DNA of 20,723 nt from a virus. Below the pieces are notes generated by a model that was not told the DNA's origin, did no database searches, and was given only the letters and a program-made list of their open reading frames with translations. The stretch lies in the UHGV virus genome UHGV-0278151; one strand, 5' to 3'. Positions 4,870 through 19,305 of this stretch are shown here, piece after piece (positions within the stretch are counted from its first letter, which is position 1; each line of letters begins with the position of its first letter). The position numbers and the translations under genes were made by a program.

Positions 4870-5265
4870 TCACATTTCATAGGTAATGACATAAGTCAGA
4901 TCGGCTGAACTCCACAGGCCCGCATCATCGTCGCGCCGGTAGTCATAGCCGCTGGCCACCATACTGGTGATCAAATCTGACAGTGCCGGGATATCACTCA
5001 TCACCGGATAAATCCGGGACTCCATCCACGCATCCAGCTCTGAATCCGGCACCTGAGCAGGCAGGAAAACTTCAATATGCAGCTCCGCCTGCCATGTATC
5101 GCTGTCCAGCTCTTCGCCCGTGTATTCAGCGCCGGTGAGATAAACGGCAACTGCCGGAAAATCCGCCTCATCAAAAACAGCGGGGCGACCATCAAAAAAC
5201 GTCGCCCCGGTGTCATGCTTCTCCAGTGCATCCAGTACGGCTGCACGGAGTTCAGTATGTTTCAT
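4870..5265 (-). CDS. U: Tail terminator protein U
   Basis: 131 aa, [52 protein letters not shown]..., matches lambda gpU. Confidence 0.95.
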
Positions 5266-5840
5266 CGCTTTATTACCATTCTCAGTTGATGCTGCAGCGC
5301 ATAGCCCAGCTCTTTCGGAAGACGTTCACGCCGTATCCGTTCAATATTCTGTTTAAACGCCGTGGTCAGCGGCACCGCCATCGGGATTTTCACCACATCA
5401 ATGGGGTAACGGTTTTTCCCGGCCACACGCTGCATGACATGCCACCGGCCATTTTTCAGTTGCTGAATAAACGCGCCGGGAATACGACGGTTTCCCACCA
5501 CAAGCACGCTGCCGCCACCTTTCAGGGATGAACGCTGCCCCTTTTTACGACGTCTGCGGCGGGAAAGGACAACCCGCGCGTTACCCAGCTTGATTACGGG
5601 CAAATCCCCCCGGTTAACCCTGATTCTGGCCTGCGGATTTTTGACCGTGGCCCTTTTCAGCCTGGCCCTTTCCTTTACCAGTTTCCGGCGTACCTTTGTC
5701 TCACGGGCAACCTGTGACGCAGACTGCGATATCGCGGATGACGCAACGCGGTTAATGGCCATTGCGGCGGCACCAGGCACCGCCGTTTTGCTGATACGGC
5801 TGAGGTTTTCAACGGCCTGCTCAAGACCTTTTATGGCCAT
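5262..5840 (-). CDS. Z: Tail completion protein Z
   Basis: 192 aa, MAIKGLEQAVENLSRISKTAVPGAAAMAINRVASSAISQSASQVARETK..., matches lambda gpZ. Confidence 0.95.
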   Translation of the reverse strand: MAIKGLEQAVENLSRISKTAVPGAAAMAINRVASSAISQSASQVARETKVRRKLVKERARLKRATVKNPQARIRVNRGDLPVIKLGNARVVLSRRRRRKKGQRSSLKGGGSVLVVGNRRIPGAFIQQLKNGRWHVMQRVAGKNRYPIDVVKIPMAVPLTTAFKQNIERIRRERLPKELGYALQHQLRMVIKR

Positions 5841-14874: not shown

Positions 14875-15255
14875 TCAGCGTTTCAACTGAAAGTGAGGCC
14901 CGTCTTTCAGTGTTTTCCAGTCCCCACCCCATTCGATGGCAGTTCCCAGCTCTGCGGCAGCCTGCTTAAATGCCTGCGCGATTTTCTCGTACAGAGGCCA
15001 GTCCCATGACACCTGGCTGCCAATGTAGGCCACAACATCCACCGCATCACCTGTAAGGTGGCGGCTGTTCATGGTCTGGCTTTTCCCTGCCGCTACCAGC
15101 TGTTTCTGGCGATACTTACTGCGCAGACCTTCCGTGATACCAAAATCAACCTCCGTCAGCTCCAGCGCACGGCGAACGACAGCAACCAGCTGTGGTTTGA
15201 CGCCCTCCAGATTTTTTTCACTGCGACGGCTGAATCTGAATTTACCCGGCATCAT
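14875..15255 (-). CDS. Endolysin, peptidase M15 family (VanY / L-alanyl-D-glutamate peptidase-like)
   Basis: MMPGKFRFSRRSEKNLEGVKPQLVAVVRRALELTEVDFGITEGLRSKYRQKQLV...SRHLTGDAVDV...DGPHFQL carries the H-x6-D and C-terminal H zinc-ligand pattern of M15 peptidases. GAGG lies 5 nt upstream of the ATG at 15255, and the gene follows the holin genes. Confidence 0.8.
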   Translation of the reverse strand: MMPGKFRFSRRSEKNLEGVKPQLVAVVRRALELTEVDFGITEGLRSKYRQKQLVAAGKSQTMNSRHLTGDAVDVVAYIGSQVSWDWPLYEKIAQAFKQAAAELGTAIEWGGDWKTLKDGPHFQLKR

Positions 15256-15257
15256 AT

Positions 15258-15533
15258 TCACCTCAACAATGGAAAGATTTTTGTGACGTTCCCGCGTGCG
15301 CGTATCACCAGCACGCAGAACAGCAGGTTAAAAAACACTTCCAGCCAGCCCGTTGCTAACGGGCGACCACACAGATAGCTGAGGGGCGCAAAGGCATACA
15401 GCAGCATCAGCAGCCAGGCCAGCCATGACATCAGCGGTTTGTGTCTGGAGTCACGACGACGATAAAAAAAGAGCGTCAGCACGATAACCGTGCATAACGC
15501 CACATTCAGTAATCCGGGAAGGTTACTTAACAT
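15258..15533 (-). CDS. Holin-like small membrane protein (about 3 TM, 91 aa)
   Basis: MLSNLPGLLNVALCTVIVLTLFFYRRRDSRHKPLMSWLAWLLMLLYAFAPLSYLCGRPLATGWLEVFFNLLFCVLVIRARGNVTKIFPLLR has three hydrophobic segments and a charged C-terminus. A GGAGGAGG SD is present, and the gene is translationally coupled to its neighbours directly upstream of the endolysin. Confidence 0.7.
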   Translation of the reverse strand: MLSNLPGLLNVALCTVIVLTLFFYRRRDSRHKPLMSWLAWLLMLLYAFAPLSYLCGRPLATGWLEVFFNLLFCVLVIRARGNVTKIFPLLR

Positions 15534-15915
15534 TGCCGCCTCCTCCGCCCCGCAGGCGCGAGAACAGGCCGGACACCAGTGATGCGATATCCTGCTGGTG
15601 GATGAACGACAGAATCTTCACCGACACCACCGCCACCAGCACCGCACACAGTGCATCCGCAGATGTACCGTCATAACCTGTTTTTGATGCAATCCAGGCT
15701 GACAGTACACGCGCCCCCAGTACACCAACAATGAACGACACCAGAAAATGTGCCGCCACACGCCAGGCTGAAATCTTCTGCGGCATCGTTGCCACAAACA
15801 ACGCCCCGGCGAACGCACCAAACACAATCCCGAAATCCGTTCCGGTAAACAGCCCGAATACCGTCGCCCCGCCGAGCGCCGCAGCCGTGCCGGAACCGGA
15901 TAAGGGTTCAGACAT
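15523..15915 (-). CDS. Holin/antiholin-like membrane protein (130 aa, Gly/Ala-rich TM segments)
   Basis: MSEPLSGSGTAAALGGATVFGLFTGTDFGIVFGAFAGALFVATMPQKISAWRVAAHFLVSFIVGVLGARVLSAWIASKTGY... AGGAGA lies 6 nt upstream of the ATG at 15915. It is the first gene of the lysis cassette and resembles LydA-type holins in composition. Confidence 0.65.
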   Translation of the reverse strand: MSEPLSGSGTAAALGGATVFGLFTGTDFGIVFGAFAGALFVATMPQKISAWRVAAHFLVSFIVGVLGARVLSAWIASKTGYDGTSADALCAVLVAVVSVKILSFIHQQDIASLVSGLFSRLRGGGGGNVK

Positions 15916-15930
15916 ACTTTTTCTCCTGTA

Positions 15931-15955
15931 AATAAAAAAGGGCCACCAACGGCCC
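15931..15955 (-). terminator. Rho-independent terminator between the TerB module and the holin
   Basis: The minus strand reads GGGCC gttggt GGCCC TTTTTTATTT, and a second hairpin (AAAGGCA-8nt-TGCCTTT, 15972-15993) lies just upstream. Confidence 0.8.
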
Positions 15956-16002
15956 ATAAAAACACCCCATCAAAGGCACCCGCAGATGCCTTTTGTGTGG
16001 TG

Positions 16003-16155
16003 TTATTCAGATTTACGCAGTAAAGGCCGGAGCACGACCAGCGCCATCGCCACCAGCACACCATCTGCCAGCACCGACATCAGCCGTCCGGTGAAATCCA
16101 CCACCACTACCAGAAACAGCAGGATGGCAGCCAGCACAAGGCGCGCACTTTTCAC
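16003..16155 (-). CDS. Small two-TM membrane protein (50 aa) translationally coupled to the TerB-like gene
   Basis: It is not in the ORF track (under 60 aa). The GTG at 16155 overlaps the TerB-like stop (CTGTGA), with GGAG 8 nt upstream. The product is VKSARLVLAAILLFLVVVVDFTGRLMSVLADGVLVAMALVVLRPLLRKSE*, with two clear hydrophobic helices and a basic tail. Confidence 0.55.
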   Translation of the reverse strand: MKSARLVLAAILLFLVVVVDFTGRLMSVLADGVLVAMALVVLRPLLRKSE

Positions 16156-16577
16156 AGGTACTGCTCCAGCGGCAACTGCAACGCCTGTGCAATTTTCTTG
16201 AGCTGCACTTCTTCATCAGGACCGATGCCGTCCTGGTCAGCAATATCCAGACACAGACACAGCACGTTAACTGCATCATCAGTACCGGCAACATCAGCCA
16301 GCTGACGAAGGGCTTCGGCATTGGCAGAACGCGGTGACGCTTCATAACGGGCGCGGATATTTGCACTCATTTGTGCAATCTCACCCGAGAACGGCGCAAA
16401 GGCAGGAAGTGCTGCAATGGTTTTCTCCAGCACAGCGATTTCTTTCGCATCACAGGTGCCGTCGGCGAATGCTATGGAATACGCACCCCAGACGGTCGCC
16501 TCCACTGCATCGCGGTTCTCCATCTTCTTCACTTCGGTAATGGCCTTGCGGGTTTTCTTTTTGAAAATACCAAACAT
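16152..16577 (-). CDS. TerB-like (tellurite-resistance TerB fold) protein
   Basis: 141 aa, MFGIFKKKTRKAITEV...GAYSIAFADGTCDAKEIAVLEKTI...LCLCLDIADQDGIGPDEEVQLKKIAQALQLPLEQYL. It has the two A-x-ADG-x-x-D/E-x-x-E repeats and the N-terminal MSFF/MFGIF-K motif of TerB. An AAGGA SD precedes the ATG at 16577. Confidence 0.7.
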   Translation of the reverse strand: MFGIFKKKTRKAITEVKKMENRDAVEATVWGAYSIAFADGTCDAKEIAVLEKTIAALPAFAPFSGEIAQMSANIRARYEASPRSANAEALRQLADVAGTDDAVNVLCLCLDIADQDGIGPDEEVQLKKIAQALQLPLEQYL

Positions 16578-16596
16578 CGTGACTTTTCCTTTTAGT

Positions 16597-16681
16597 GGGT
16601 GAGCCTGCGCCCGGGGGTGACCAGCCCACAGAGAAAGTCACACTGACCATCCCGTAAGCTCACCCCTGAAAGGCTCTGTGG
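16597..16681 (-). promoter_or_regulatory. Structured 5' leader of the TerB-like gene (two interleaved 8-bp GC-rich helices)
   Basis: Helix A pairs 16626-16633 (ccacagag) with 16674-16681 (ctctgtgg). Helix B pairs 16597-16604 (gggtgagc) with 16658-16665 (gctcaccc). The arms interleave (B-left, A-left, B-right, A-right), so they form either a pseudoknot or mutually exclusive folds. They end about 10 nt from the SD. Confidence 0.5.
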
Positions 16682-16788
16682 TTTTTGATGTGCGCCGGGC
16701 GTGGCGCAAAGAAATGAAATAAGACTTACCTGAAATTAAGGTTAATCTGAGGATTTAAACCATTTTTAAAGCTTAGTAATATCAACTC

Positions 16789-16867
16789 GTCTCCTGAAGG
16801 AGACAGATACTTATGATTCTTCATGGACTTTGTCCCGCGGCGTTAATCCGACGGCCGCGCTTTTTTT
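16789..16867 (+). ncRNA. Candidate plus-strand small RNA (about 80 nt) antisense to the late-operon direction
   Basis: TTTAAA (16754-16759), a 17-nt spacer and TAATAT (16777-16782) form a promoter-like signal. The predicted transcript has a 5' hairpin GTCTCC-tgaa-GGAGAC (16789-16804) and a terminator CGCGGC-12nt-GCCGCG-C-TTTTTTT (16836-16867). Confidence 0.45.
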
Positions 16868-16902
16868 GCGCCATATTCATCGCTAACTTACATGGCATTG
16901 CC

Positions 16903-16937
16903 ACACGGGCATTATCAGTGTCCGTGTTTCTTTTTTT
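16903..16937 (+). terminator. Second plus-strand intrinsic terminator
   Basis: ACACGG-13nt-CCGTGT followed by TTCTTTTTTT. Confidence 0.6.
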
Positions 16938-16949
16938 AGGATTCAGAAT

Positions 16950-16974
16950 AAAAAAAACCGCCCGGTGGAGGCGG
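16950..16974 (-). terminator. Minus-strand intrinsic terminator downstream of the tRNA-like gene
   Basis: The minus strand reads CCGCC-tccaccg-GGCGG followed by TTTTTTTT. It is convergent with the two plus-strand terminators. Confidence 0.75.
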
Positions 16975-17242
16975 TAAAGGATGTATTTCCAGGTTTTGCT
17001 TAATATATGAATAATCTCAATGTCATGGTGTTATTTACAACACCAGAATGATGCATCACCGACCCTGCCAGGAAATATAAAATCTCCGCCGAAAATGCAC
17101 CATTCTGCTGCCGTAAAAAAATCAGCACTGCGGCTACACCCGACCCCAAATCATAGCCAGAGAACAGAATGTTTTTAACAATCTACCCCCACGTAATAAA
17201 AAAATACGTCAGTGCCGTCACTATAAGGCGTATTTCAAATGT

Positions 17243-17318
<76 letters not shown>

Positions 17319-17446
17319 TTTTATTGCCACATCCGTAACAACAGTCGACAGGAATAATATACATTCAGAATCAGCCGCCTTAGCTAATTGTGCAACCATC
17401 TGCTCTTTGCAAGTGCACTTAACGTCCTGCGCCACTTTTCAGGCAT

Positions 17447-17469
17447 AAAAAAACCCGCTCAGTGGCGGG
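17447..17469 (-). terminator. Intrinsic terminator (copy A of a 25-bp repeated terminator)
   Basis: The minus strand reads CCCGC-cactga-GCGGG-TTTTTTT. A second 8-bp hairpin (AAGGCACC-attaa-GGTGCCTT, 17490-17510) lies just upstream on the same transcript. Confidence 0.75.
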
Positions 17470-17482
17470 ATCTTTTGATAAA

Positions 17483-17594
17483 AACGACAAAGGCACCATT
17501 AAGGTGCCTTTTACACAGGGGCAGCAGGCTTGTCATCACCTCATCGCTACTCCTGGCTTCCTGTTCGGAAGTCTCACAAGTCCCATCAGGGTAC
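17483..17594 (-). ncRNA. Candidate small RNA (about 85-145 nt) from the TTGACA/GATACT promoter to the tandem terminators
   Basis: The predicted start is near 17594. The transcript has an internal hairpin CTTCC-gaaca-GGAAG, then the 17510-17490 hairpin with a U-rich tail, then the 17469-17447 terminator. There is no convincing ORF, only ATG AGG TGA and a 25-codon frame with a poor SD. Confidence 0.4.
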
Positions 17595-17600
17595 AGCGAC

Positions 17601-17629
17601 AGTATCAGCCAACACACTATGTGTGTCAA
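17601..17629 (-). promoter_or_regulatory. Strong sigma70-type promoter TTGACA-17-GATACT
   Basis: The minus strand reads TATA TTGACA cacatagtgtgttggct GATACT gtcgctg. The hexamers are those of lambda pL. The spacer contains the inverted repeat ACACAC-tat-GTGTGT. A perfect palindrome ATCGAATTCGAT (17641-17652) and a 10-bp hairpin lie upstream. Confidence 0.6.
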
Positions 17630-17664: not shown

Positions 17665-18066
17665 TTATCGATACAGATAAGCCATCCCTATCCCGTGCAA
17701 TACCGCCCGTTTAATATTCTCAAACTCATCTTCCGCAATCATAGGAACAATATAATTTCGTCCCTCCCAGGTTCTGGTTTTTATGCGATCCAGTCGGCTC
17801 AATGAAACCGTCATCAACATGTCACATTTTACCCAGCAAGTAATATGCTCATTACCAGGTATGGGGTTTTCTGATAACTCATGATGGCAATCTCTGCGAG
17901 GGAGCGGTTCAGTAGTGCTTATTGGTACCACTGTTACCAATTGATTGTTGTGCCTGTTTCTGGACACGACCACCACTGGCCTGACCTTGACTATTTCCGG
18001 AACAACCATTCCCCGAAAATCACACATTAAAACAGAACGAACAGACGGCTGATACTTTAATACCAT
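17665..18066 (-). CDS. PemK/MazF-fold toxin-like protein (YifN-like), with no adjacent antitoxin gene
   Basis: 133 aa from the ATG at 18066: MVLKYQPSVRSVLMCDFRGMVVPEIVKVRPVVVVSRNRHNNQLVTVVPISTTEPLPRRDCHHEL...WVKCDMLMTVSLSRLDRIK. This is the MazF/PemK signature (G/S-x-L-x-x-DF ... E-x-x-K-x-RP-x-VV-S ... V-x-VVP-x-ST ... D-x-x-x-TV). The SD is weak (AAGAGA). Confidence 0.7.
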   Translation of the reverse strand: MVLKYQPSVRSVLMCDFRGMVVPEIVKVRPVVVVSRNRHNNQLVTVVPISTTEPLPRRDCHHELSENPIPGNEHITCWVKCDMLMTVSLSRLDRIKTRTWEGRNYIVPMIAEDEFENIKRAVLHGIGMAYLYR

Positions 18067-18170: not shown

Positions 18171-18193
18171 AAAAAAACCCGCTCGGCGGCGGG
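18171..18193 (-). terminator. Intrinsic terminator (copy B); candidate tR' about 50-70 nt downstream of the candidate late promoter
   Basis: The minus strand reads CCCGC-cgccga-GCGGG-TTTTTTT. It matches copy A at 17447-17469 in 23 of 25 positions, and the two differences lie in the loop. Confidence 0.75.
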
Positions 18194-18247
18194 ATTTGCT
18201 TACTTTGCCATCGAGTACAAAATCGGCAAAATATCAGATTTGCACGA

Positions 18248-18276
18248 AATATATGCCTTTTAATCTACTTTTGCAA
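18248..18276 (-). promoter_or_regulatory. Candidate late promoter pR' overlapping the 3' end of the Q-like gene
   Basis: The minus strand has TTGCAA (18276-18271), a 17-nt spacer and TATATT (18253-18248). The predicted +1 is the A at 18241. The initial transcribed region contains cTGaTATTTT, a -10-like element of the kind that causes sigma70-dependent pausing at lambdoid pR' promoters. Confidence 0.5.
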
Positions 18277-18949
18277 CACTTTGCTTTGAAAATGCCGTCT
18301 TTTGTTCTGAACGTGTTCTCATCACAAACAATAAAGCCTCACTATCCAGCCGGTGGAAAATGTGTTTCATTGCAACCCAGTGACCAGTAAATGTTTTGGA
18401 CCAGTTTTTTGTTGTTACTCCCGCCAGTAATGCCAGTTCCTGATATTCATAAGTTTCACGCCCAGCTAGCTCACTCTTCACATCCTGTGCCGCCAGCCAG
18501 ATTAATTTTTTCAGGCGCTCCCGTGTTTTCTCCGCAATTTTTCTGGTACCAGATTGCGCGTTAAATTCATTCCACGCCCACTGTGTTATCGCAATCTGGT
18601 GTTCCCAGCAAATGCTGCCGCTGTAACACCACAGCAACCAGGCTTTATAGTGTTCTTCAAGAGACAGAACCGCCCGTCGCCATGATGATGTCGAAAACTC
18701 AACCTGACTTACCAGAGGAATTGACGTCCTCTTTGCCAGCGATTGTTTCCCCGGGATTGGTGGATTATCCCGCGTTATCATTTTTCCGGTCACTTCATCG
18801 CGGTACCGGATTTTTTTACGCCTGTAACGCCCTGTATCAAACATGGCATTCTCCTGCCAGGCTTCAAGCTGACCTTTTGTTGCCCCACTCAAATCGGCGG
18901 TGGCAATAATGAGCTGCTCACGAACAAACTGTAAATACTGGTTATTCAT
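18260..18949 (-). CDS. Late-gene antiterminator Q, QuuQ-like long form (229 aa)
   Basis: It sits directly after rusA with an ATGA stop/start overlap at 18946-18949, and GGAG lies 5 nt upstream. A promoter and terminator follow it. The size and the DUF968-Q adjacency match Qin ydfU-quuQ. The sequence is MNNQYLQFVREQLIIATADLSGATKGQLEAWQENAMFD...EEHYKAWLLWCYSGS... The family assignment is from memory and position only. Confidence 0.55.
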   Translation of the reverse strand: MNNQYLQFVREQLIIATADLSGATKGQLEAWQENAMFDTGRYRRKKIRYRDEVTGKMITRDNPPIPGKQSLAKRTSIPLVSQVEFSTSSWRRAVLSLEEHYKAWLLWCYSGSICWEHQIAITQWAWNEFNAQSGTRKIAEKTRERLKKLIWLAAQDVKSELAGRETYEYQELALLAGVTTKNWSKTFTGHWVAMKHIFHRLDSEALLFVMRTRSEQKTAFSKQSVAKVD

Positions 18950-19305
18950 GCGCACTCCAGCCCTGTGATTTTTATCCCCAACCGACCACCAGGAACGACC
19001 TGACCGCGCACAATATTGATTTCATCAAACTGCTCGTCGTCGATAAGCAGTCCCGCATACGTCAGCGCATCCAGCGGTGCTTTCAGAATATTGTCCAGGT
19101 CACGACGGCGCTTATCCGGCGGCTCTGCAATGATCTTTATCGCCAGCCTTCCGGACAGGTTTAATTTCAGCCGCTGCTGGCGAACAATAAGCGCCACATC
19201 ACGGCGATAACGCTCACCGGCTTTTGATACAAAATATGTGCTGCCACGACGACGCCAGTAGGTGTTCACCGTCGGCGGGTAAGGCAAAACAAACTCTATA
19301 CGCAT
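18946..19305 (-). CDS. rusA: Holliday junction resolvase RusA
   Basis: 119 aa, MRIEFVLPYPPTVNTYWRRRGSTYFVSKAGERYRRDVALIV...PPDKRRRDLDNILKAPLDALTYAGLLIDDEQ... It carries the conserved P-P-S/T-x-N-x-Y and DRRRRDLDN motifs of RusA. Confidence 0.9.
   Translation of the reverse strand: MRIEFVLPYPPTVNTYWRRRGSTYFVSKAGERYRRDVALIVRQQRLKLNLSGRLAIKIIAEPPDKRRRDLDNILKAPLDALTYAGLLIDDEQFDEINIVRGQVVPGGRLGIKITGLECA

Follow-up and report, generated by a model that had tools for sequence, protein, structure and literature searches.

An overlapping gene pair upstream of the holins of a lambdoid prophage: almost certainly the tciA-tciB cassette known from phage P1, with candidate roles weighed

What is the pair of overlapping small genes that lies directly upstream of the holin genes in UHGV virus genome UHGV-0278151, and what might it do for the phage? 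The stretch of DNA analysed, 20,723 nucleotides (nt) long and called the window below, carries on its minus strand a TerB-like gene whose stop codon overlaps the start of a 50-codon frame, and an original prediction made from the letters alone had described the two as an insulated module that was not known as a described system. Judged by sequence comparison, the pair is almost certainly the phage tciA-tciB cassette, which has carried that name since the P1 genome was annotated; we refer to the two genes together as tciAB and to their products as TciA and TciB. For our explanation as a whole, which covers identity, expression and function together, we hold a confidence somewhat above even.

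Identity of the overlapping pair

An 801-bp query (window 15900-16700) was 100% identical to a lambdoid prophage of Escherichia coli SE11 (NC_011415.1), where RefSeq labels the two products 'tellurite resistance TerB family protein' and 'DUF3927 family protein'. Window and P1 tciA shared 78% nucleotide and 85% amino-acid identity, and the TciB proteins 46-52% identity. In the P1 annotation the order is tciA-tciB-tciC-trnI-ban on one strand, 3' of the C1-controlled ban promoter. The two loci (P1_gp074-076 for P1 tciA-tciB-tciC) are alike in their orthologous TciA, in a homologous TciB with the same DUF3927 core, in gene order, in the start of tciB at the tciA stop (a 4-nt overlap in the window, abutting in P1), in tRNA genes close by and in being accessory, non-essential cargo. 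They differ in that P1 has tciC, for which no open reading frame (ORF) was present in the window between the tciB stop, the two hairpins and the holin ribosome-binding site, and which is missing from most other non-P1 contexts as well. They differ also in setting, a C1-controlled ban operon in P1 and a lambdoid late operon 5' of holins in the window, and in the leader pairing with the Shine-Dalgarno (SD) sequence and the 3' tandem terminator (see below), both of which P1 lacks.

Direct reading of the sequence bore out the predicted arrangement: the 141-amino-acid ORF ends in CTGTGA, the GTG within it opens the 50-codon frame, and the small hydrophobic partner is coupled to the TerB-like gene through the GTGA overlap and a GGAG (SD) of its own inside tciA, 8 nt 5' of the tciB GTG (Table 1). 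From this anatomy we infer that the two products are co-translated. The tciB frame appears in the ORF listing of the window, and RefSeq annotates it under the name given above. Because the pair had already been named in P1, annotated in SE11, catalogued in Pfam and PHROGs and made the subject of functional speculation in the literature, the claim of an undescribed system was wrong. That speculation assigns the pair tellurite or colicin resistance or phage inhibition. All of tciA, tciB and tciC were non-essential in P1 by CRISPR interference (PMC10695390); the tci operon is among eight variable regions of P1-like phage-plasmids, some half of the members of one subgroup have lost it, and its link with phage inhibition was called 'unclear' (PMC9603915); a review repeated the protective hypothesis without data (PMC11652158). 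The claim of discovery thus falls, and the interest lies in the function of a very common phage module and in its conserved leader: leader plus tciAB occur in about 27% of complete E. coli genomes.

The two proteins and their association

TciA matched the Pfam TerB family (PF05099) at 28.7 bits (cutoff 24.4, expectation value (E) 1.7e-6), with the match restricted to residues 11-57, equivalent to profile positions 60-106 of 118, and matched PHROG 632 ('tellurite resistance') over its full length (E 4.1e-64). A sequence search of TciA against all PDB chains gave a best E of 0.66, to an unrelated DUF1524 protein. Because this search returned nothing meaningful, the TerB relationship needed fold comparison. 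The AlphaFold2 model, built on an input alignment of 26 homologues with the P1 row excluded, had a mean predicted local distance difference test score (pLDDT) of 87.9 and a predicted template-modelling score (pTM) of 0.83, with six helices across residues 22-132; its best Foldseek match was 2h5n (probability 1.0), and its compact all-alpha fold is shared with solved TerB-like structures. The predicted TerB assignment thus holds on the above-cutoff PF05099 score and the fold match, with the profile covered in part and no sequence match in the PDB. We conclude that TciA is a soluble cytoplasmic protein of the TerB superfamily (PF05099/COG3793), outside any ter operon. Its family is small, with 169 clusters at E ≤ 1e-3 in a full HMMER scan of 1.84 billion representatives.

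Two acidic DG...E motifs (Table 1) recur in TciA; such motifs are a predicted metal-binding signature of TerB domains, and their repetition in TerB was reportedly defined by Anantharaman et al. in 2012. D39, G40 and E46 of the first and D116, G117 and E122 of the second were invariant or nearly so in alignments A1 and A2, and the Glu after each DG motif was the only invariant residue in alignment A4 (25-45% identity). The N-terminal tail (residues 1-20) is conserved, polybasic and disordered, combining a hydrophobic patch with a polybasic stretch in the motif MFGxFKKKxRK. Among 77 distinct loci the ratio of nonsynonymous to synonymous substitution rates (dN/dS) was 0.055 for tciA and 0.38 for tciB.

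TciB (MKSARLVLAAILLFLVVVVDFTGRLMSVLADGVLVAMALVVLRPLLRKSE) has hydrophobic stretches at about residues 6-19 and 25-42 and a basic C-terminus, RPLLRKSE. It matched Pfam DUF3927 (PF13064; E 1.6e-14), its sole Pfam match and not a holin family, and PHROG 1470 ('TciB-like inhibition of cell division or resistance to colicin'; E 6.7e-24), and its conserved core reads VDFT(G/S)xxxSxLxDGxLV. By its sequence TciB is likely a hairpin of two transmembrane segments, and the predicted N-in/C-in orientation fits the positive-inside rule. The AlphaFold2 monomer model was one continuous helix over residues 2-48 (pLDDT 91.8), so that of the predicted 'two hydrophobic helices and a basic tail' the hydrophobic stretches and the tail stood and the model gave one helix in place of two. 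Were the helix continuous, the conserved D20, R24, S27 and D31 would line one polar stripe.

The association of the two genes extends far beyond the window. The tciA stop was overlapped or abutted by a hydrophobic ORF of 45-55 amino acids in 79 of 80 loci from IMG/VR, in 13 loci from species-level genomes that have a full TciA, and in P1; tciB followed tciA directly in about 105 loci, nearly all with the 4-nt overlap or abutting; and a small coupled ORF came after the TciA-like gene in 10-11 of 12 diverse GenBank phages inspected. Co-occurrence, which the original prediction had named among its checks, was thus confirmed. Single distant TciA proteins were used as queries to reach further viral contigs, a profile alignment of divergent homologues having proved unsuitable. 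Two of these contigs (TciA identity about 36-39%) had DUF3927 ORFs overlapping the TciA stop (E 1.3e-8 and 4e-13), and a third (57% identity) had an unrecognised two-segment hydrophobic ORF in the tciB position. With conservation far beyond chance in these comparisons, tciB is a real gene.

Leader, terminators and position in the late operon

The structured leader of the original prediction was substantiated. About 135 nt 5' of tciA are conserved, and their consensus fold pairs the SD with an upstream CCUUU (Table 1); 96% of cells were paired and five pairs showed compensatory changes, a result equalled in 0-2 of 500 column shuffles, and slid controls were paired at 38-48%. The single-sequence fold gave only a modest gain over shuffles (z -1.9). 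Of 5426 complete E. coli genomes, 1469 have the leader. It precedes the two divergent classes of tciA allele and is conserved in all lambdoid contexts. In O157:H7 (L111) and JLK-2012 (L130), a TciA allele of 42-43% identity stands behind a leader that is 87% identical in nucleotides, and from such comparisons recombination seems to have had its breakpoints where tciA starts and within the 5' end of tciB. No TAnnnT -10 element occurs in the conserved leader. Upstream of it, the nearest intrinsic terminator of the window has a stem and a U-run (Table 1); in most other loci the leader is directly abutted by an intrinsic terminator that varies between loci and often belongs to a tRNA upstream.

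On the 3' side, scanning and folding upheld the two predicted hairpins, including a canonical terminator: together with the U-run they folded at -34.2 kcal/mol (z -3.7), and 0 of 200 shuffles did as well. Loci of Citrobacter and Pseudescherichia, and phiP27 as well, have kept the first hairpin. Of 108 loci, 82 have a terminator no more than 110 nt from the tciB stop, a trait of lambdoid junctions that is absent in P1, O157 and the N4-like phages. No Rfam family covered the leader or either of the 3' hairpins at E ≤ 1, and the only Rfam matches were the tRNA remnant and a weak isrK/isrJ-like match at pR'-tR'. Of the predicted autonomous, insulated unit, insulation at the 3' end therefore stood, and autonomy was only half supported, the consensus scan giving no sigma-70 promoter between the terminator at 16975-16957 and tciA. 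Flanking terminators are typical content of a Q-antiterminated late operon.

Such an operon surrounds the pair. The minus strand of the window reads Q, pR'/tR', a PemK/MazF-like toxin gene, terminators and a tRNA remnant, tciA, tciB, a terminator, two holins, an endolysin and terminase genes. In phiP27 (NC_003356.1; L113, 3250-3400) the last ~95 nt of tciB and both hairpins precede the same two holins; this remnant aligns with window 15940-16097, and stx2eAB with tRNA-Ile/Arg stands in the place of tciA and of the 5' part of tciB. On this alignment stx2e evidently was inserted into, or recombined over, a tciAB cassette in phiP27, so that tciAB and stx share one cargo slot and the holins function without tciAB.

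The cassette thus occupies the cargo slot of a Q-dependent late operon, between Q and tRNA remnants on one side and the lysis genes on the other, the slot in which Stx phages carry stx. Because no promoter of its own was detectable, tciAB would most likely be transcribed from pR' by Q-antiterminated polymerase after induction, and translation of tciA would probably be gated by the SD-pairing leader. The terminators on either side would then be those usual in a late operon, which in a lysogen keep this region silent.

Table 1. Features of the cassette, its flanks and the lysis region (window coordinates unless residues are given)
Feature	Position	Strand	Basis or remark
tciA	16152..16577	-	141-aa ORF, 3' end ...TAC CTG TGA
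tciB	16003..16155	-	50-codon ORF, GTG start at 16155-16153
GTGA start/stop overlap of tciA/tciB	16152..16155	-	4 nt; read from sequence
TciA acidic DG...E motif 1	A38-D-G-T-C-D-A-K-E46		alignments
TciA acidic DG...E motif 2	D111-I-A-D-Q-D-G-I-G-P-D-E-E123		alignments
Conserved ~135-nt tciA 5' leader	16578..16712	-	conservation, consensus fold
Anti-SD CCUUU in leader	16673-16669	-	pairs SD AAAGG (about 16592-16588)
Nearest upstream intrinsic terminator	16957..16975	-	stem + U-run; promoter/terminator scan
First 3' hairpin, right after tciB stop	15961..16004	-	RNA folding
Intrinsic terminator, GGGCC-GUUGGU-GGCCC + UUUUUUAUUU	15930..15955 (stem 15955-15940)	-	scan and folding; adjoins holin ribosome-binding site
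Holin 1 (Phage_holin_8), first lysis gene	15523..15915	-	ATG at 15915; Pfam, PHROG
Holin 2 (Phage_holin_3_7)	15258-15533	-	Pfam, PHROG
M15 endolysin	14875-15261	-	Pfam, PHROG
tR'-like terminator	18193-18178	-	terminator scan
pR'-like promoter	18276-18248	-	promoter scan
Antiterminator Q	18260..18955	-	Pfam Phage_antiter_Q, E 1.2e-93

Several smaller features lie between Q and the leader. A PemK/MazF-family toxin gene (17665-18066, minus strand; Pfam E 5.6e-14) follows just 3' of the tR'-like terminator; no antitoxin ORF is evident adjoining it, which leaves it an orphan within the late operon. The pR'/tR' pair (18172-18276, minus strand) would give a short leader transcript weakly similar to Salmonella Gifsy isrK/isrJ (Rfam E 0.29-0.66, below gathering score). 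The region's best promoter-like site, TTGACA-17-GATACT (10/12), lies at 17629-17601, and tandem intrinsic terminators at 17511-17489 and 17469-17454 follow about 90-150 nt past it; this segment (17446-17629, minus strand) looks like a small non-coding RNA gene, for which the sole Rfam match was weak, isrK-like and placed over the second terminator (E 0.76). Among the conserved neighbours of the prophage small RNAs PasA and PasC, a preprint of 2026 names a TerB gene. The truncated tRNA at 17254-17311 (minus strand) scored 48.5 bits against Rfam tRNA over model positions 8-63 of 71 and ARAGORN did not report it. An association of tRNA genes with tciAB recurs in unrelated phages: intact ones (Ile/Arg, Asn/Thr/Gly, Trp/Cys) stand just 5' of the cassette in O157 prophages, JLK-2012, P1/P7 and Erwinia jumbo phages. 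Between the leader and the upstream terminator, an AT-rich insert of about 245 nt (16713-16956), missing in most related loci, carries on the plus strand a 54-codon ORF (16813-16977) with a strong AAGGAGA SD and, inside the ORF, a plus-strand terminator (16903-16927); pieces of the insert turn up elsewhere in E. coli genomes and also in phage vB_EcoS-683R6, and it had no Pfam match.

Contexts in other phages and candidate roles

The settings of the cassette were compared across phages, with neighbour classes taken from tblastn to the holin and from database annotation (clustering of downstream ORFs was dropped for its spurious GC-rich ORFs). A lambdoid late region, with a Phage_holin_8 holin about 90 nt 3' of the cassette, is the setting in 64 of 80 close relatives, and in one locus (L017) the cassette lies 5' of an S21-type pinholin. 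O157:H7 and JLK-2012 have it between tRNA genes and a nanS-p/SASA esterase gene, P1 and P7 in the ban operon, and an Enterobacter prophage in the early-left (pL-like) operon between DUF1482 and a RecE-like gene; it is present as well on contigs of about 60-110 kb that resemble phage-plasmids. In the virulent N4-like phages Pollock, FSL SP-058, SP-076 and Zuri it occupies early or middle regions, and in virulent Erwinia jumbo phages it adjoins tRNA genes. Altogether, 99 GenBank phage records had a homologue, virulent N4-like, jumbo and Pseudomonas phages included.

These neighbours bear first on lysis timing, in which TciB, under the control of TciA, would act as an antiholin or holin modulator of the adjoining holins. 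The position 5' of a holin in most close relatives speaks for such a role, as do the small, hydrophobic TciB with its charged C-terminus, superficially holin-like, and the late transcript that it would share with the holins. However, the downstream neighbours vary (Phage_holin_8, S21-type pinholin, SASA esterase, tciC-tRNA-ban, RecE-like and N4-like early genes), at least three of them being unrelated, and many phages carry the cassette far from lysis genes. The same holins are found in phiP27 with the cassette destroyed, a terminator intervenes between tciB and the holin, and TciB has no holin-family match. Mainly because the neighbours vary, we abandoned the functional link to the holin that had been predicted, and consider lysis timing very improbable.

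The same survey bears on lysogenic conversion, in which tciAB would be on in the lysogen, driven by a promoter that escaped recognition, and provide superinfection exclusion or abortive infection against phages and pore-forming colicins. The ter operon confers Phi (phage inhibition) and PacB (colicin resistance) phenotypes, TerB domains occur in validated defence systems, and protection has already been proposed for the pair in the literature. The terminators on both sides also resemble the insulation of a moron, and one locus (L089) has a good TTGACA-17-TAAATT promoter about 140 nt 5'. Against this, the remaining ter genes needed for the ter phenotypes are absent, no promoter was detected in the window or in the conserved leader, and the cassette sits inside lytic operons in P1 and in the Enterobacter prophage. 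Searching PADLOC-DB v2 (Shango and Bunzi included) gave no match for TciA or TciB at E ≤ 1, so that the suggested check for a known defence system came back empty for either protein. Strictly virulent carriers have no lysogens to protect, and their possession of the pair contradicts a lysogen-specific role. We judge lysogenic conversion unlikely, and take tciAB to be probably neither a lysogen-only exclusion gene nor a holin regulator.

Tellurite or metal-stress resistance, the annotated function, draws on the TerB-family assignment and on annotation by homology. None of terZ, terA, terC, terD or terE was found in the 37 kb annotated SE11 prophage or in the other contexts examined. TciA is too divergent from solved TerB proteins for a sequence match, and the phage would have no obvious benefit. 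Earlier work noted phage TerB genes standing alone, both in prophages of Klebsiella and in virulent phage PMBT3, whose authors doubted resistance from a lone TerB (PMC8421299). Because no other ter genes are present, we downgraded this role to extremely improbable. TerB of the terZABCDE operon (IncHI2 R478, O157 islands; 2jxu, 2h5n, 2ou3) is like TciA in its all-helical fold, duplicated DG...E motifs and size of about 140-150 amino acids. Both are also expected to associate with the inner membrane on its cytoplasmic face, TerB having been reported as membrane-associated. TciA differs as a divergent, phage-borne subfamily with no TerC, TerD or TerZ and with a 50-amino-acid membrane partner instead. 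The membrane-anchored, DnaJ-like co-chaperone DjlA likewise has a central TerB-like domain, kept at the inner membrane by way of a transmembrane segment, and TciA matched its NCBIfam model PRK09430 weakly (E 0.05, residues 21-106, 13 bits against a cutoff of 162); unlike DjlA, TciA has no J domain, and its membrane anchor would be a separate polypeptide.

TerB domains are also known from the defence systems Bunzi, Shango and Dionysus, for which membrane surveillance has been proposed. Shango (SngABC), Bunzi (BnzAB) and Dionysus (DinABC) resemble tciAB in joining a TerB-like domain to a membrane component. They differ in that tciAB has no helicase/ATPase, lipid-binding domain or pore-forming toxin, and in that they belong to host defence islands whereas tciAB is phage-encoded, in virulent phages too; none of their partner genes, whether ATPase and helicase or pore-forming toxin with a MAEBL/TM protein, was among the neighbours of the cassette in the window, which are the PemK toxin, tRNA remnants, holins and endolysin. 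By analogy with these systems, tciAB might serve phage counter-defence, as a membrane-tethered TerB decoy against TerB-based or membrane-depolarising host immunity. The place of the cassette in early gene regions of virulent phages would suit that role, as would the TerB domains of the host systems and the accessory status, patchy distribution and rapidly exchanged alleles that anti-defence genes typically show. Yet the idea rests on analogy, and TciA showed no similarity to SngA, BnzA or DinB in the PADLOC models; we regard it as improbable.

The reading that we favour has tciAB acting during phage growth, as suggested by its carriage in virulent phages, its positions in lytic operons and the detection of TciA peptides in purified P1 virion preparations (PMC9024508), from which it follows that the protein is made during lytic growth. 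In temperate phages, tciAB lies in operons under repressor or antiterminator control: the P1 ban operon, the early-left (pL-like) operon and the late operon after Q. TciB would be the inner-membrane component, either TciB or the MFGxFKKKxRK tail of TciA would keep TciA at the cytoplasmic face, and the two proteins would work as one membrane-associated unit. We tentatively suggest that this unit may be a dispensable accessory that works on the inner membrane of the host while the phage develops and that senses or buffers ion or membrane stress, which is possible but doubtful in its particulars. The infected cell would thereby be spared premature permeabilisation by superinfecting phages, pore-forming colicins or host abortive-infection effectors, or such phages and colicins might be excluded from it. 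The comparative picture narrows the hypotheses in any case: the module is not holin-linked and not lysogen-specific, its alleles are exchanged independently, and its lambdoid regulatory leader is conserved.

Several observations weigh against this reading. Some TciA-like genes have no DUF3927 partner: that of PMBT3 has no small partner, Vibrio phage BUCT194 has a soluble 83-amino-acid ORF, and Pseudomonas phages AF (L121, 1932-2153) and Zuri (L127, 1143-1346) have a different partner with one transmembrane segment. P1 (L001) and P7 (L124) have TciB proteins that are nearly identical from residue 15 on, and TciA proteins of 85% and 35% identity to that of the window; the O157 alleles are 43% (TciA) and 56% (TciB) identical to those of the window. 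By these identities, TciA and TciB alleles are exchanged independently and have partly separate histories, and such histories disfavour a tight, allele-specific TciA-TciB complex. A natural TciA-TciB fusion (P0175) was considered as evidence for a complex and set aside, being one sequence on one contig and probably a frameshift or assembly artefact. The topology of TciB is a further difficulty, the AlphaFold2 model predicting a single long helix rather than a hairpin. As to expression, no sigma-70-like site of at least 9/12 was found on the minus strand between 16975 and 16578 in a consensus scan that may miss weak or alternative-sigma promoters, and the terminator before the holin would matter most if some Q-independent transcription of tciAB exists.

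A broader idea, rather improbable in our estimate, is that tciAB is a widespread 'membrane guard' or anti-defence device in which TciB holds a TerB sensor or decoy at the inner membrane. If true, it would block abortive-infection effectors or Shango-, Bunzi- or Dionysus-like surveillance, or a premature loss of membrane potential, and in lambdoid prophages the SD-pairing leader would permit translation in certain conditions only.

Some of the loci surveyed have features of their own. The partner in AF and Zuri combines a single N-terminal transmembrane helix with a conserved C(E/K)xYGxQTERETxYAxFVGCMV domain; in AF, where it has no annotation, a GTGA overlap couples it to the TciA-like gene, and in Zuri it follows after a 4-nt gap. 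Enterobacterial-type tciAB was found under the labels of a Bacillota metagenome-assembled genome, Pseudomonas lundensis, Acinetobacter and Kocuria (L083, L089, L098, L099), and 'Actinobacillus phage vB_Apl-pPE4' (PP818812.1, H1/H76) is 92% identical in nucleotides to the E. coli prophage region, with a TciA of 99% identity; these odd-host records are probably contamination or mislabelled hosts. Finally, the phage-plasmid-like contigs with P0206-type tciAB (L100-L105) repeat a palindrome-containing motif, AAACAACTTGTTT, just 5' of successive genes (about 4930-5000 and 5650-5720), which may be an element-specific promoter or operator.

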